From IMG/VR virus record IMGVR_UViG_2778261316_000009: a DNA stretch of 36,248 bases. One strand, given 5' to 3'. Positions within the stretch are counted from its first letter, which is position 1. Each line of letters opens with the position of its first letter. The translations under genes and the position numbers were made by a program. The DNA is from a virus. Taxonomy: Duplodnaviria; Heunggongvirae; Uroviricota; Caudoviricetes. This document shows, in pieces, positions 7,596 to 15,491 of the stretch. Under the pieces are notes generated by a model that saw nothing but the letters and a program-made list of their open reading frames with translations, did no database searches and was not told where the DNA came from.

Positions 7596-8249
7596 TCAAA
7601 AATCCATTATTACTTGTTTGACAAGACCAACTATTCTGCAGTTCTCACCGCATTCAATAGTTTTATAGTTAGGATTTAGTGGGACGAGATACCTGTTCGG
7701 CCAGTCCTCAACAAATTTTTTGAGTGTCGCTTCTTGCCCACCATTGATATGGGCAACAACGATTTTTCCGTTAATACACTCTGTATCAATAATATCTGGC
7801 TCTACGATAACGATAGAACCTTCTGGTATCGATGGTGAGCCGAGGGGATTGGTCATTGAATCACCACGGACCCGTAGTGCAAATGCCATTTCTGATACAA
7901 GGGCGGTAGTATAAACCCACTCTTCAGCATCTTCTTTCCTGACACCAGGCTCCGTCATTGTCCATGAACCCGCCTGAACCCACGAGATGAGGGGGACTTT
8001 TTTAACTGCGAATATTTCAGGTTTTAGATTTATCTTTGGTTCAGGCGAGCCTTTTCCGCTAACAAGCCACAGAGGATCGCATTTAAGTGCGTTGGCTAGG
8101 GCTTGAAGGTTGGCTCCATTTGGTTGGTAGTCGTCCTTTTCCCATCCAGTAACCGTGACACGGTTCACACCAGTCAAATCAGCCAGTGCTTGTTGTGTCA
8201 GGTTCAGTTCTTTTCGCCTTTGGCGAATACGATCACTCATGTTCATCAT
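7596..8249 (-). CDS. cI-like prophage repressor (HTH plus S24 LexA-type peptidase domain)
   Basis: N-terminal HTH LTQQALADLTGVNRVTVTGWE; C-terminal VRGDSM autocleavage-domain motif; flanked by operator palindromes. Confidence 0.85.
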   Translation of the reverse strand: MMNMSDRIRQRRKELNLTQQALADLTGVNRVTVTGWEKDDYQPNGANLQALANALKCDPLWLVSGKGSPEPKINLKPEIFAVKKVPLISWVQAGSWTMTEPGVRKEDAEEWVYTTALVSEMAFALRVRGDSMTNPLGSPSIPEGSIVIVEPDIIDTECINGKIVVAHINGGQEATLKKFVEDWPNRYLVPLNPNYKTIECGENCRIVGLVKQVIMDF

Positions 8250-8313
8250 GTAGGCAATCCTACCACATGCCCATGTAGGATTCTTGACATTGGTATGTTG
8301 GATATCCTACATT
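8248..8313 (+). promoter_or_regulatory. OR region: operators plus candidate pR, with a pRM-like arrangement abutting the repressor start
   Basis: sites ATGTAGGATTCTTGACAT (8273-8290) and ATGTTGGATATCCTACAT (8295-8312), degenerate site 8248-8268; TTGACA 8284-8289, 18-bp spacer, TACATT 8308-8313. Confidence 0.55.
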
Positions 8314-9498: not shown

Positions 9499-10440
9499 AT
9501 GAGCACTAAATTAACCGGCTATGTATGGGATGGTTGCGCAGCGTCAGGCATGAAATTATCCAGCGTGGCAATTATGGCCCGCCTGGCTGATTTCAGTAAT
9601 GACGAAGGTGTGTGCTGGCCATCAATTGAAACCATTGCCCGCCAGATTGGCGCGGGGATGAGTACCGTCAGAACGGCTATCGCACGGCTGGAAGCAGAAG
9701 GCTGGTTAACGCGTAAGGCGCGTCGCCAGGGTAACCGCAATGCGTCGAATGTTTATCAGCTTAACGTTGCGAAGCTTCAGGCAGCGGCATTTTCTCAACT
9801 GTCAGATTCTGACCCGTCAAAATCTGACGCATCAAAATCTGACCCGTCAAAATTTGATGCGTCGAAATCTGGCAAAAAAGCGGGTTTTCACCCGTCAGAA
9901 TCTGGCGGGGATCCGTCAGTAAAATCAAAACATGATCCGTCAGATAAAAAACCTTCTCGTCCGGACGCTTCGCAACCGGACACGCAGACGGCTGAACAGG
10001 ATTTTTTAACTCGCCATCCTGATGCGGTTGTATTCAGCCCTAAAAAACGCCAGTGGGGGACGCAGGATGATTTGACCTGCGCACAGTGGCTCTGGAAAAA
10101 AATCATCGCCCTGTACGAGCAGGCTGCCGAATGTGACGGCGAGGTGGTTCGTCCCAAAGAACCGAACTGGACAGCCTGGGCAAACGAAATTCGCCTGATG
10201 TGTGTGCAGGATGGTCGTACTCACAAACAAATCTGCGAGATGTACAGCCGCGTCAGCCGCGATCCGTTCTGGTGCCGTAACGTGCTCAGCCCGTCGAAGC
10301 TGCGGGAAAAATGGGATGAGCTTTCCCTGCGCTTATCGCCGTCCGTCAGCACATACACAGAAAAACGTGAAGATCCGTACTTCAAATCCAGTTACGACAA
10401 CGTGGACTACAGCCAGATCCCGGCAGGATTCAGGGGGTGA
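9499..10440 (+). CDS. phage replication initiation protein (O-like) with an internal iteron-bearing linker
   Basis: N-terminal HTH block (SSVAIMARLADFSNDEGVCWPSIETIARQIGAGMSTVRTAIARLEAEGWL) typical of phage replication proteins; central SDPSK/SDASK repeat; Trp-rich C-terminal domain. Confidence 0.6.
   Translation: MSTKLTGYVWDGCAASGMKLSSVAIMARLADFSNDEGVCWPSIETIARQIGAGMSTVRTAIARLEAEGWLTRKARRQGNRNASNVYQLNVAKLQAAAFSQLSDSDPSKSDASKSDPSKFDASKSGKKAGFHPSESGGDPSVKSKHDPSDKKPSRPDASQPDTQTAEQDFLTRHPDAVVFSPKKRQWGTQDDLTCAQWLWKKIIALYEQAAECDGEVVRPKEPNWTAWANEIRLMCVQDGRTHKQICEMYSRVSRDPFWCRNVLSPSKLREKWDELSLRLSPSVSTYTEKREDPYFKSSYDNVDYSQIPAGFRG
9800..9950 (+). repeat. iteron array (candidate origin of replication) inside the replication gene
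   Basis: four tandem 15-bp units TCTGAC(C/G)C(G/A)TCAAAA followed by degenerate CCGTCAGA copies and an A-rich stretch. Confidence 0.5.
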
Positions 10441-10442
10441 TC

Positions 10443-10931
10443 ATGAGTCTTTTGAATGAAGTTCAGAAATTCATTGAAGCCCATCCGGGGTGTACTTCCG
10501 GAGACATTGCGGATGCTTTTGCAGGTTACTCACGGCAGCGCGTTCTGCAGTCAGCAAGCAAGTTACGTCAGAGTGGGCGTGTGGCTCACCGTTGTGAAGG
10601 AGATACACGCAGACATTTCTCGCGCCTGACTGAGAGAGCGCAGGAGCCGGAACCACAACCAGTTCGTGAAACCAGACCTGTGCGCAAGTTCTATGTCGGC
10701 ACTAACGACCCCCGGGTGATTTTGTGCCTGACCCGCCAGGCTGAAGAACTGGAGTCGAGGGGCTTATACCGTCGTGCTGCAACGGTGTGGATGGCGGCAT
10801 TCCGTGAAAGCCACTCCCAGCCAGAACGAAACAATTTTCTGGCGCGTCGTGAACGGTGTTTACGGAAAAGCAGTAAGCGGGCTGCATCAGGTGAAGAGTG
10901 GAATCTCTCAGGGAATTACGTGGGGGCTTAA
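10443..10931 (+). CDS. PerC-like transcriptional regulator
   Basis: AEELESRGLYRRAATVWMAA matches the PerC-family signature as recalled; GGGGG RBS before the ATG. Confidence 0.5.
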   Translation: MSLLNEVQKFIEAHPGCTSGDIADAFAGYSRQRVLQSASKLRQSGRVAHRCEGDTRRHFSRLTERAQEPEPQPVRETRPVRKFYVGTNDPRVILCLTRQAEELESRGLYRRAATVWMAAFRESHSQPERNNFLARRERCLRKSSKRAASGEEWNLSGNYVGA

Positions 10932-11584
10932 TGAGTAATAAATATTGCCAGGCGCTGGCGGAACTGCGGAACAAACCAGCCCATGAACTGAAGGAAGTGG
11001 GCGATCAGTGGCGCACGCCGGACAACATTTTCTGGGGAATTAACACCCTGTTTGGCCCGTTTGTTCTGGATCTGTTCACTGACGGTGATAACGCCAAATG
11101 TGCTGCGTATTACACGGCGGAAGACAACGCGCTGGCGCATGACTGGTCAGAACGCCTTGCGGAGCTTAAAGGTGCTGCCTTTGGTAATCCCCCATACAGC
11201 CGCGCCAGTCAGCATGAGGGGCAATACATCACCGGCATGCGTTACATCATGAAGCATGCCAGTGCCATGCGTGATAAAGGCGGGCGCTATGTTTTCCTGA
11301 TCAAAGCTGCCACCAGCGAAGTGTGGTGGCCGGAAGATGCAGATCATATTGCTTTTATTCGCGGGCGTATTGGTTTTGAACTGCCTGCCTGGTTTATCCC
11401 GAAGGATGAGAAGCAGGTGCCGACAGGCGCTTTCTTCGCTGGTGCTATTGCTGTTTTCGACAAGACCTGGAAGGGACCGGCAATCAGCTACATCGGGCGC
11501 GATGAACTTGAGGCATGTGGTGAGGCCTTTCTGGCGCAGGTTCGCCAGCAGGCAGAAAAACTGGTCAGGGAGATGGCGGCATGA
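10931..11584 (+). CDS. phage DNA N6-adenine methyltransferase (Dam-like)
   Basis: NPPY catalytic motif (FGNPPYSR); start MSNKYCQ at a TAATG overlap with the upstream stop. Confidence 0.75.
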   Translation: MSNKYCQALAELRNKPAHELKEVGDQWRTPDNIFWGINTLFGPFVLDLFTDGDNAKCAAYYTAEDNALAHDWSERLAELKGAAFGNPPYSRASQHEGQYITGMRYIMKHASAMRDKGGRYVFLIKAATSEVWWPEDADHIAFIRGRIGFELPAWFIPKDEKQVPTGAFFAGAIAVFDKTWKGPAISYIGRDELEACGEAFLAQVRQQAEKLVREMAA

Positions 11585-11907
11585 CGACGTTAACTCAATG
11601 CCAGCAGCAGGTGCTGGATATGCTGATTTCTTATCAGAAAGAACGTGGCTTCCCGCCAACCAATCAGGAGGTGGCAACCATGCTGGGATACCGTTCAGTG
11701 AATGCAGCGGTGGAGCATCTTCGCGCACTGGAGAAAAAAGGCGTCATCACGATAAAGCGTGGCGTGGCCCGGGGCATCACGCTTCATACCGCGGTGAAGG
11801 ACGACGACAGCGAGGCGGTCGGGATTATCCGCGCACTGCTTGCCGGTGAGGCAAACGCCAGGCTGCGTGCAGCCCACTGGTTACATGAGAGGGGCCTGAA
11901 AGTATGA
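11581..11907 (+). CDS. LexA-type DNA-binding domain protein
   Basis: QQVLDMLISYQKERGFPPTNQEVATMLGYRSVNAAVEHLRALEKKGVI resembles the LexA N-terminal winged helix; ATGA coupling. Confidence 0.5.
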   Translation: MTTLTQCQQQVLDMLISYQKERGFPPTNQEVATMLGYRSVNAAVEHLRALEKKGVITIKRGVARGITLHTAVKDDDSEAVGIIRALLAGEANARLRAAHWLHERGLKV

Positions 11908-12293
11908 AGCTAATACTGCCTTTTCCGCCCAGCGTGAACACGTACTGGCGACACCCCAACAAAGGGGCGCTTGCAGGTAAGAGCCTGATAAGCGCGGCGG
12001 GGCGAAAATTCCAGAGCGCAGCGTGTGCAGCCATCATTGAGCAGTTACGTCGTCTGCCGAAACCAACGTCGGCACCAGCTTCAGTGGAGATCGTGTTGTT
12101 TCCTCCGGATAACCGGCTTCGCGATCTGGACAACTATAACAAGGCGCTGTTTGACGCCCTGACCCACGCGGGTGTGTGGGTGGACGACAGCCAGGTGAAA
12201 AGAATGCTGGTGGAGTGGGGGCCGGTTATCCCGGAAGGGAAGGTCGAAATCACTATCAGTAAGTACGAGAAAACGGCGGGTGCAGCCGCCTGA
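11904..12293 (+). CDS. rusA: RusA-family Holliday junction resolvase
   Basis: MKLILPFPPSVNTYWRHP ... RLRDLDNYNKALFDALTHAGVWVDDSQV is the characteristic RusA signature. Confidence 0.85.
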   Translation: MKLILPFPPSVNTYWRHPNKGALAGKSLISAAGRKFQSAACAAIIEQLRRLPKPTSAPASVEIVLFPPDNRLRDLDNYNKALFDALTHAGVWVDDSQVKRMLVEWGPVIPEGKVEITISKYEKTAGAAA

Positions 12294-13123: not shown

Positions 13124-14119
13124 GTGACCGTGAGAGCACTACTGACCCCTGAAATAGCCCCGCGTATGGGGATTGTATTGTTCAGACCAGGTTCAGAGCT
13201 GATGCCCCTGTTTATGCAGGGGCGTGTCCTGCTGGAGCCTGAGCCGGAACGTTATTCATCTTTCGCCAGTGGTGCCGTTCCGGCGGCATCACAACCGCTG
13301 GCGGATGATCCTGCCGTTAGGGCCGTGTTCCGCAATGAGGCAGTGATCCGTCGTGCTGGTGGCGTGGAATGTCTTGAAAGCTGGTTACTTCGTGAAAAAG
13401 GCTGCCAGTGGCCTCATTCCGACTGGCACAGCGAGAACATGACCACAATGCGACACGCGCCGGGCGCGATCCGTCTGTGCTGGCACTGCGATAACCAGCT
13501 GCGCGATCAGTTCACGGAACGGCTGGAATCAATGGCAACGGATAACTGTGCCCGCTGGGTGTTGTCTGTAGTCCGTCTGGATCTCGGTTTTGATGATAAC
13601 CATGCCGTGACAATGCCGGAACTGTGCTGGTGGCTGATTCGTAATGACCTGGCGGATGCCTTACCGGAAAGTGCAGCCCGTAAGGCACTGAGATTACCGA
13701 AGCCTGTTGTGCCGTCTGTCACCCGGGAAAGTGACCTTGTGCCTTCGGTTCCTGCCACCAGCATCATCCAGGATAAGGCGAAAAAGGTGCTGGCGCTGAA
13801 AGTGGATCCGGAGTCGCCGGAGTCTTTTATGTTACGCCCAAAACGCCGCCGCTGGGTTAATGAAAAGTACACGCGCTGGGTTAAGACACAGCCGTGTGCA
13901 TGTTGTGGAAAGCCTGCTGATGATCCCCACCACCTGATAGGCCACGGTCAGGGTGGAATGGGTACAAAAGCGCATGACCTCTTTGTGTTGCCTTTGTGCA
14001 GAAAGCATCACGACGAGCTGCATGCGGATACCGTGGCATTTGAAGAGAAGTATGGCTCTCAGCTGGAGCTGATATTTCGTTTTATCGATCGTGCGCTGGC
14101 AATTGGCGTATTGGCGTAA
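13124..14119 (+). CDS. DUF968 domain protein
   Basis: C-terminal Cys/His cluster (CACCGKPADDPHH ... CRKHHDELH); GTG start. Confidence 0.55.
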   Translation: MTVRALLTPEIAPRMGIVLFRPGSELMPLFMQGRVLLEPEPERYSSFASGAVPAASQPLADDPAVRAVFRNEAVIRRAGGVECLESWLLREKGCQWPHSDWHSENMTTMRHAPGAIRLCWHCDNQLRDQFTERLESMATDNCARWVLSVVRLDLGFDDNHAVTMPELCWWLIRNDLADALPESAARKALRLPKPVVPSVTRESDLVPSVPATSIIQDKAKKVLALKVDPESPESFMLRPKRRRWVNEKYTRWVKTQPCACCGKPADDPHHLIGHGQGGMGTKAHDLFVLPLCRKHHDELHADTVAFEEKYGSQLELIFRFIDRALAIGVLA

Positions 14120-14132
14120 GTGGAGAACGAGC

Positions 14133-14885
14133 ATGAACCTTGAAGCCTTACCAAAATATTACTCCCCAAAATCTCCAAAATTGAGCGATGACGCACCGGC
14201 GACAGGCTCAGGTGGTTTAACGATTACGGATGTGATGGCTGCGCAGGGGATGGTGCAGTCGAAAGCACCGCTTGGGTTTGCCTTATTCCTGGCAAAAGTT
14301 GGTGTTCAGGATCCTCAATTTGCGATTGAAGGTCTGCTCAATTACGCGATGGCACTGGATAACCCGACATTGAACAAATTGAGTGAAGAAACCCGGTTAC
14401 AGATCATCCCTTACCTTGTGAATTTTGCCTTTGCTGATTATTCCAGGTCTGCGGCAAGTAAGGCTCGCTGTGAGCATTGTGCTGGTACTGGATTTCATAA
14501 TGTATTGCGCGAAGTGGTGAAACACTCCAGAAGCGGGGAATCTGTTATCAAGGAAGAGTGGGTGAAGGAACTATGTCAGCATTGTCATGGTAAGGGAGAA
14601 GTCAGCACAGCGTGCAGAGGGTGTAAGGGTAAAGGTATTGTCCTGGATGAAAAAAGGACCCGGCTTCATGGCACGCCTGTTTATAAGATTTGTGGGCGTT
14701 GCAATGGAAACCGGTTTAGCCGTTTACCAACCACGCTGGCACGACGTCATGTCCAGAAGCTGGTACCAGACCTGACCGATTATCAGTGGTATAAGGGGTA
14801 TGCGGACGTCATTGGTAAACTGGTAACAAAGTGCTGGCAGGAAGAAGCATACGCGGAAGCGCAATTGAGGAAGGTGACGAGATAA
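14133..14885 (+). CDS. late-gene antiterminator Q (QuuQ-like, with DnaJ-type zinc finger)
   Basis: CxxCxGxG repeats (CEHCAGTG, CQHCHGKG, CRGCKGKG); sits directly upstream of a promoter/terminator pair and the lysis genes; about 250 aa. Confidence 0.65.
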   Translation: MNLEALPKYYSPKSPKLSDDAPATGSGGLTITDVMAAQGMVQSKAPLGFALFLAKVGVQDPQFAIEGLLNYAMALDNPTLNKLSEETRLQIIPYLVNFAFADYSRSAASKARCEHCAGTGFHNVLREVVKHSRSGESVIKEEWVKELCQHCHGKGEVSTACRGCKGKGIVLDEKRTRLHGTPVYKICGRCNGNRFSRLPTTLARRHVQKLVPDLTDYQWYKGYADVIGKLVTKCWQEEAYAEAQLRKVTR

Positions 14886-14991: not shown

Positions 14992-15016
14992 AACCCGCCA
15001 CTGAGCGGGTTTTTTG
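14992..15016 (+). terminator. rho-independent terminator (tR'-like)
   Basis: ACCCGC-CACTGA-GCGGGT hairpin followed by a T-run. Confidence 0.7.
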
Positions 15017-15137
15017 TACCTGTAAACTTGGTGCAGTACAGTAAACACGCTGGTGGTCGTGAATACTGACTTTTTATCTTGCTGGATTTTTAGACAAGAG
15101 TTATTGGTATGTCATGTTAACCAGAAGGGAAAAAGAC

Positions 15138-15341
15138 ATGCTAAAACAGCAAGATATGACAGAAACCGCCGCCGCAGTCCTTCATTTCTTACCTGCTGAC
15201 AAGTGGGTAACGCCACGCATGATGACGAGAACTACCGGAGTAAGCGAAGCCCGGTGCCAGTTAATACTGACTCAGTTAGTTCTGGCGGGTCTGGCGAAGG
15301 ATAACGGCGGGTACGGGAATAAATTCAGACGCTGCCAGTAA
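15138..15341 (+). CDS. small winged-helix protein (PapI/FaeA-like?)
   Basis: AAGGGA RBS before the second ATG; pattern VSEARCQLILTQLVLAGLA is wHTH-like; weak call. Confidence 0.35.
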   Translation: MLKQQDMTETAAAVLHFLPADKWVTPRMMTRTTGVSEARCQLILTQLVLAGLAKDNGGYGNKFRRCQ

Positions 15342-15491
15342 TGGCGGTTTCCTGCTGTGAAAATGGGCGGCTGGTGGGTGTTGGTAGCACCTGCCAGCCA
15401 TTCGCTCATGCTTACTGGTCACAAGCGAACCACGGCCCACTGCTTTAGCGCAAAAGCAGAGTGAGCCTACCAGAGTTACGCTTACTGATCC

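Follow-up and report, generated by a model that had tools for sequence, protein, structure and literature searches.

What does a phage gain from a Dam-type adenine methyltransferase of its own when the host already methylates GATC, and what is such an enzyme doing in a genome that encodes a second, unrelated methyltransferase? This question is raised by a 36,248-nucleotide stretch of DNA from a virus of the Caudoviricetes (IMG/VR record IMGVR_UViG_2778261316_000009), referred to here in its full length as the window, which carries a dam-type gene at 10931-11584 in its early region and a gene of the M.EcoGII family in its late region. An initial annotation had suggested that the two enzymes give layered protection against restriction or serve methylation-dependent control. 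We found that the early gene is genuine and intact, encodes a phage adenine methyltransferase and is under purifying selection, and that its product most probably methylates GATC, the site of the host Dam. Our whole reading, to which we give a probability of about 0.8, is that it is a functional dam allele of the type known from Shigella phage SfV, which would methylate GATC, is carried as an optional early cassette and would act around the time of replication.

The early methyltransferase and its probable target

The product of dam matches the Pfam family PF05869, 'DNA N-6-adenine-methyltransferase (Dam)', over profile positions 3-167 of 169 (156 bits, cut-off 28.1; E = 9.8e-46) and the NCBIfam equivalog TIGR01712, phage_N6A_met, over positions 1-165 of 165 (255.6 bits, cut-off 97.05). 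A Pfam scan with E values up to 0.01 returned no family besides PF05869. When the window open reading frames (ORFs) of at least 80 aa were scanned in six frames for [DNS]PP[YFWH], two sites only were found, the NPPY of Dam and a DPPY in the late methyltransferase. The family's N-terminal DxWxTP motif, its Asp motif (LDLF) and NPPY are all present, in agreement with the NPPY-motif, Dam-like enzyme described by the initial annotation. Across 26 homologues, reaching down to 33% identity, D25, W27, T29, D47, N66, P87, P88, Y89 and S90 are invariant and N86 is nearly so (at least 90%). The predicted structure has the Rossmann-type fold of the S-adenosylmethionine-dependent amino-methyltransferases, and a sequence search of the PDB with the protein found no relative, even though the structures of E. 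coli Dam, T4 Dam and DpnM are deposited there.

The gene is also maintained in nature. Among 53 full-length copies in phage loci we counted 45 distinct alleles, with no stop codon and no indel, and 73 synonymous against 29 non-synonymous variants (pN/pS ~0.11). Because the copies are free of stops and indels and pN/pS is this low, we conclude that dam is kept by selection.

The window protein is identical to the product of SfV dam (orf41; GenBank U82619, AAL89443) at 214 of 217 positions, with three substitutions, and the depositors of the SfV record name orf41 'DNA adenine methylase'. The SfV genes orf40-dam-orf42-orf43(rusA) have the same order, neighbours and overlaps as those of the window, while the upstream replication gene of SfV is another allele with 38% identity to that of the window. 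SfV was reported in 2002 to encode multiple DNA methylases, and experiments are said to have confirmed that its orf-41 is a Dam methylase.

Two further, characterised phage enzymes, M.EcoVT2Dam, which we located as orf32 of VT2-Sakai, and HP1 Dam (orf13), belong like the window enzyme to PF05869, share with it DxWxTP, the invariant Asp and NPPYS in the same order, and are likewise encoded by orphan genes of the early or nin region. They are shorter, at 173-175 aa; the window enzyme, with 217 aa, differs from them by 11 residues inserted behind NPPYS and by a 27-residue helix at its C terminus. M.EcoVT2Dam has been reported to target GATC (PMC6602927). From the 99% identity to SfV Dam and from M.EcoVT2Dam, the target of the window enzyme is most probably GATC. 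On present evidence the early enzyme would then share the site of the host Dam, the outcome that the initial annotation itself had named as speaking against layered specificities.

E. coli Dam, T4 Dam and DpnM, which are alpha-class enzymes with DPPY, form a different family and give no sequence-level match. Structural alignment to them yields 8-12% identity, a likeness at the level of the fold only, and the window enzyme has NPPY instead of DPPY, another order of motifs and no alpha-class target-recognition domain. Judged by these comparisons, 'Dam-type' is a functional label for the window enzyme and makes no statement about its family. The non-specific enzymes Hia5 and Hin1523 were also considered as kin and rejected, being DPPY enzymes related to alpha-class Dam and not members of PF05869.

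Some database records, among them those of phage Kati and RefSeq mEp460, label dam as 'phosphoadenosine phosphosulfate reductase'. The label goes back to PHROG 33262, a profile of 495 positions that represents Dam as the C-terminal domain of fusion proteins; among the distant Dam homologues, long fusions of the phosphoadenosine phosphosulfate reductase type do exist.

The early operon and the spread of the dam cassette

The replication gene, the PerC-like gene, dam, the LexA-like gene and rusA form a tightly packed string (Table 1). The PerC stop codon TAA (10929-10931) and the dam ATG (10931-10933) share one base, in TAATG, the dam stop codon TGA (11582-11584) overlaps the ATG of the LexA-like gene (11581-11583) as ATGA, and a second ATGA overlap at 11904-11907 joins the LexA-like gene to rusA. 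The overlapping junctions behind the coupling proposed by the initial annotation are therefore present, and from these overlaps dam is probably translationally coupled to both of its neighbours. None of the genes around dam (PerC-family, LexA N-terminal domain, RusA, KilA-N and replication genes) encodes a cognate restriction endonuclease, so that dam is an orphan.

Table 1. Features of the early and late methyltransferase regions of the window
Feature	Position	Strand	Remarks
cI-like repressor gene	7596-8249	-	divergent, adjoining the PR-like promoter
PR-like promoter, TTGACA-18-TACATT	8284-8313	+	consensus match only; likely source of the early transcript with dam
Replication initiator (HTH_36/DnaD-like)	9499-10440	+	directly upstream of the PerC-family ORF
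Iteron array, 15-bp repeats, probable origin (ori)	9787-9948		inside 9499-10440; GATC sites at 9910 and 9934
PerC-family ORF, yfdN-like, 162 aa	10443-10931	+	ATG at 10443, alternative GTG at 10437
dam-type methyltransferase ORF, 217 aa	10931-11584	+	starts MSNKYCQ; allele of SfV dam (orf41)
Catalytic motif IV codons, NPPY, aa 86-89	11186-11197	+	direct reading and alignment of 26 homologues
LexA DNA-binding-domain-only ORF, 108 aa	11581-11907	+	PF01726, no S24 peptidase domain
RusA Holliday-junction resolvase	11904-12293	+	profile match; next gene, same operon
Antiterminator Q	14091-14885	+	between the early operon (dam) and the late operon (second methyltransferase)
tR'-like intrinsic terminator, AACCCGC-loop-GCGGGTT and T run	14992-15016	+	between Q and the late methyltransferase
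Covarying leader, ~135 nt	15357-15491	+	upstream of the late methyltransferase; no Shine-Dalgarno sequence
Late beta-class methyltransferase, M.EcoGII family, 350 aa	15492-16544	+	PF01555, E = 1.6e-42; equals SfV orf48
LexA/SOS-box-like palindrome TACTGTAAAAATAAACAGTG	15500-15519		codons 4-9 of the late methyltransferase gene

Transcription of dam would start at the PR-like promoter, from which an unbroken string of + strand genes with overlapping junctions, and with no strong terminator between them, leads to Q. The depositors of SfV annotated a separate -35/-10 pair for dam, TTGCGC/TACGGA, which is weak; the -35 reads TGGCGC in the window, and a consensus scan found no internal dam promoter at the SfV-annotated site. 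The SfV record also annotates a terminator at the position equivalent to 14992-15016. The initial annotation's assignment of one early and one late enzyme agrees with this arrangement, in which dam lies in the PR operon upstream of Q and the second methyltransferase in the late operon after Q and the terminator. The iteron array consists of six to eight 15-bp, GTCAAAATCTGACCC-like, partly palindromic repeats that encode a repetitive DPSKSDASKS peptide, and its two GATC sites sit in the right-hand GATCCGTCAG repeats. The array is probably the phage ori.

The two genes next to dam are the PerC-like and LexA-like neighbours that the initial annotation had named. The upstream protein matches PerC, PF06069, above threshold (E = 4.8e-9; 36.8 bits against 22.6), with residues 100-151 on profile positions 5-56 of 90, so that the match is confined to the C-terminal third and leaves the N-terminal half uncovered. 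The same ORF gives a sub-threshold match to the ANR family, and its homologue in RefSeq is yfdN of the PerC family. The downstream protein matches LexA_DNA_bind, PF01726, over positions 1-65 of 65 (E = 2.9e-19; 69 bits) and aligns with residues 2-86 of E. coli LexA. A Pfam scan of its 108 residues found no Peptidase_S24, and TIGR00498 scored 70.7 bits, under the cut-off of 110.95, over profile positions 1-91 of 203 only. As far as sequence can tell, this product is a LexA-domain protein and no LexA orthologue. Its recognition helix is LexA-like (RSvNAAvEHL versus RSPNAAEEHL), and the alignment runs through the region of the LexA cleavage site (LAGE versus AAGE), after which the protein has a short extra helix and ends; it resembles an uncleavable N-terminal fragment of LexA. 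Some RefSeq records give it the wrong name 'LexA repressor'.

The 1.6-kb module with these genes is 99.9% identical to the inducible Escherichia phage vB_EcoM-720R4 and 97-99% identical to mEp460, phage cdtI, many Stx2c and Stx2a phages, 1720a-02 and SfV. It matches 2675 of 5426 complete E. coli genomes, and in 1610 of these the match spans 80% or more of the module, while ~1000 E. coli genomes match part of it only. RefSeq uses the same gene names for the PerC-like, dam and LexA-like genes as the initial annotation. The dam module is thus already known and very common in E. coli and Shigella prophages, and the finding is an ordinary one.

In E. coli 19AR1321 (locus L004, 790-800) the sequence reads GGGGGCTTAATGACGACG, that is, dam has been excised exactly, from its own ATG to the next ATG. 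The gene behaves here as a precise one-gene cassette, 10931-11581, bounded by ATGA, with the 19AR1321 junction reading TAATGACG. In the CPS-53 (KpLE1) prophage of K-12, yfdN and yfdM are the counterparts of the PerC-family gene and of dam, in the same order, with 97.5% nucleotide identity over the first half of the query. In a K-12-derived genome this match ends inside dam (query 1-761 of 1474), leaving the truncated remnant yfdM, and the LexA-like gene and rusA lie outside the match. We also noticed 380-aa PerC-Dam fusion proteins in the databases (for example P0013, on 12 contigs) with the junction ...VGGLMSNK.... The junction corresponds to one extra G in the G5 run at 10922-10926, just before TAATG, and reflects either an error of sequencing in the homopolymer or a genuine slippage variant joining the two proteins.

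The late methyltransferase, its putative LexA box and its leader

The late enzyme has its motifs in beta-class order, with DPPY at residues 35-38 and, towards the C terminus, FxGxG as FFMGSGST. Over its full length it shares 282 of 349 residues (81%) with M.EcoGII, whose sequence is printed in the supplement of PMC11551740. M.EcoGII, from a prophage of E. coli O104:H4 C227-11, shares the prophage location and the beta-class order of the window enzyme and is 19% divergent from it, while SfV orf48 is 98% identical in nucleotides and a very similar M.EcoGII-type enzyme occurs in phage 1720a-02, which also carries the dam module. M.EcoGII is a non-specific adenine methyltransferase that is silent in lysogens and harmful if constitutive; its authors suggested that it is switched on at prophage excision and noted that phage methyltransferases are assumed to protect against restriction. 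From this kinship, the window enzyme probably methylates adenine independently of sequence context.

The late gene comes after Q and the tR'-like terminator, and a second terminator and the lysis genes follow it. This is the late 'moron' position that is taken by stx in Stx phages. It is flanked by a 75-aa ORF upstream and by the lysis genes downstream, with no restriction partner, and is therefore an orphan as well. A profile test of the small ORF at 15114-15341 as a PapI/FaeA-type regulator gave only a sub-threshold MarR-like signal (E = 0.058). The statement of the initial annotation that one phage carries two orphan methyltransferases of different families, PF05869 and beta-class PF01555, is thus borne out. 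Both genes are carried by SfV, mEp460, vB_EcoM-720R4, PhiR40_1, Stx2c phages and 1720a-02, and the arrangement is common, not unusual.

Two other phages showed variations in this region. In VT2-Sakai (locus L005, position ~20457), a tblastn search revealed, between Q and the tRNA and stx2 genes, what is left of an M.EcoGII-type gene, a C-terminal portion with 69% identity. This suggests that an M.EcoGII-type gene was displaced or cut short there by the stx cassette. Citrobacter phage phiNP (locus L086, 79-2680 and 5001-6053) has three annotated methyltransferase genes. An N-6-adenine methyltransferase and a 575-aa 'putative methylase' directly follow its replication gene, and the third is a late M.EcoGII-type gene with the same LexA box.

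This box, TACTGTAAAAATAAACAGTG, lies within the coding sequence of the late gene and is the only perfect CTGT-N8-ACAG in the window. With a weight matrix made from E. coli LexA operators, it scores 23.0 bits, compared with 13.0-27.4 for the training sites and 13.5 for the next best site of the window, and none of 200 shuffles reached 23.0. In a set of 49 members of the late-enzyme family, at least 3% apart in nucleotides, reaching down to 61% protein identity and not pre-filtered for the box, CTGT-N8-[AC]CAG is kept at the same place in 41. The synonymous codons that define the box are frozen: Thr4 is ACT in 42 of 42 (28% of Thr codons elsewhere), Asn8 is AAC in 31 of 31 (61% elsewhere) and Ser9 is AGY in 43 of 43 (39% elsewhere), while the codons and amino acids of the spacer vary. 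We considered whether the phage LexA-like gene travels with the box and ruled this out: of the 56 loci that carry the box and reach at least 4 kb upstream of it, 51 lack the gene. With the two not travelling together, the box is more likely a target of the host LexA. Neither LexA nor SOS is mentioned in the paper on M.EcoGII.

Upstream of the late gene we also found a conserved leader with covarying positions. In a four-helix model of 27 diverse sequences, 79.7% of the cells pair, compared with at most 45% when the partners are slid, and 14 pairs show double changes versus 8.7 ± 1.4 in shuffles (0 of 500 reached the observed value). In helix 2 (15370-15401), both sides have changed in 8 of 12 pairs, and the closing helix is UGGGC/GCCUA. 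A search of Rfam with the leader gave no match, and hits at E values up to 1 fell only near the upstream tR' terminator, below the gathering scores. A covariance model of the leader finds one copy in the window and is matched in SfV, Stx2c, phiNP and Kp4866-6; it finds none in VT2-Sakai and one weak hit (L100) among ten loci of the clade without the box. The leader may be an undescribed cis-regulatory RNA. It contains a GATC at 15487-15490, 1 nt before the ATG of the late gene, that is invariant in 27 of the 27 diverse sequences (alignment A5, columns 141-144) and is, by analogy to the mom gene of phage Mu, a possible Dam-sensitive control point. We see even odds that the M.EcoGII family is under the control of LexA and has a new cis-regulatory leader RNA.

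Possible roles of the two methyltransferases

How could a phage profit from a second enzyme for the site that its host methylates already? A 2020 paper described what phage Dam enzymes do as still not well understood. It has been stated that lambda DNA from dam+ cells is only about half methylated and that the host Dam is too slow before packaging (PMC3299994). The window contains 141 GATC sites, about one per 257 bp. We picture a temperate phage of the lambdoid, SfV-like kind whose delayed-early PR operon carries dam as an optional cassette of one gene. This cassette follows the replication initiator, in which the probable ori lies, precedes Q and is presumably co-transcribed with both genes. 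Dam would then be made while phage DNA replication outruns the scarce host Dam, and the progeny DNA would be fully methylated at GATC ahead of packaging. This methylation may protect the phage against restriction of the MboI/DpnII type in the next host, and may keep its replicating DNA from MutH and SeqA, which act on hemi- or unmethylated GATC. Broad cover against restriction would more plausibly come from the late M.EcoGII-type enzyme than from the early Dam.

Several points weigh against this reading. The identity of the window Dam to M.EcoVT2Dam and HP1 Dam is only 26-31%, and GATC specificity is carried over to the window allele from its relatives. A protective benefit is not obvious when the host methylates GATC already. 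Also, dam is absent from an otherwise identical module in many E. coli prophages and in SfIV, and the cassette is thus dispensable.

Layered protection against restriction, in which the early and the late enzyme would each recognise sites of its own, other than that of the host Dam, seems unlikely to us. Two intact methyltransferases of different families, without nuclease partners and under purifying selection, are what this idea expects, and the late enzyme is a close relative of M.EcoGII, which methylates adenine in any context. However, the early enzyme is nearly identical to SfV Dam, reported as a GATC enzyme, and with M.EcoVT2Dam also reported to act on GATC it would duplicate the host site; the cassette, moreover, is often missing from otherwise identical modules. 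Because a non-specific late enzyme would cover GATC already, the early Dam would add timing and no new protected sites. The same near-identity to an enzyme that was reportedly tested makes it very improbable that the window Dam belongs to a subfamily of relaxed or different specificity that serves as a broad anti-restriction methylase. Its larger size, with the insertion after NPPYS and the extra C-terminal helix, and its low identity to the HP1 and VT2 enzymes would allow for such a shift, the more so as no solved structure of the PF05869 family is detectable by sequence and small changes in a methyltransferase can alter specificity (a general point made in PMC6602927). Yet constitutive non-specific methylation is harmful, as known for M.EcoGII, while dam is widespread and sits in the early operon with no special control seen.

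A mainly regulatory role is a live alternative, but again an unlikely one in our judgement. The extra Dam would control phage replication or expression through the GATC sites in the ori iterons and before the late gene, or would act on Dam-dependent regulation of the host in lysogens. The control of the phage Mu mom gene by Dam and OxyR provides a precedent, dam follows shortly after the replication gene with the two iteron GATC sites, the GATC before the late-gene ATG is invariant across the 27 diverse relatives, and a separate dam promoter was annotated by the SfV depositors. That promoter, however, is weak, has an altered -35 in the window and was not recovered by our scan, the host Dam already methylates the GATC sites of ori and leader, and the invariant GATC is present too in many relatives without a phage dam. 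We regard it as hardly credible that dam belongs to a cryptic prophage in which it is inactive or decays as a passenger. The truncated yfdM that K-12 retains beside yfdN and the truncated and fused database entries show that decay does occur, but the window ORF is of full length with all conserved motifs, the 53 loci are free of stops and indels at pN/pS ~0.11, and the matches of the window include inducible phages, for instance vB_EcoM-720R4 at 99.9%. We therefore retain the replication-time GATC methylase as the most probable explanation.

The two ends of the locus might also be connected. In a timed circuit, expression of the late enzyme, a non-specific and potentially toxic methylase, would be gated by GATC methylation through the early Dam and by the host LexA, possibly with help from the phage's own uncleavable LexA-domain protein; this would apply a control logic like that of mom and com to another DNA-modifying enzyme. 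It seems to us distinctly unlikely that dam and the LexA-like gene, on the early side, are joined with the late M.EcoGII-type gene in one such circuit and are not independent passengers. The narrower case, with LexA and a leader RNA controlling the late gene, is much more likely than a circuit that draws in the two early genes.

The dam gene itself adds little to what is known, as it is a rediscovered cassette of the SfV type, and the practical value of its description lies mostly in the correction of annotations. Since the module occurs naturally in dam-plus and dam-minus versions, the phage would be a convenient system in which to study the role of phage Dam enzymes in Dam+ hosts. The LexA box in the late gene could matter more, because it offers a testable explanation for the silence in lysogens of M.EcoGII, a widely used enzyme, and the leader of the same gene points to a structured leader RNA that has not been described before.

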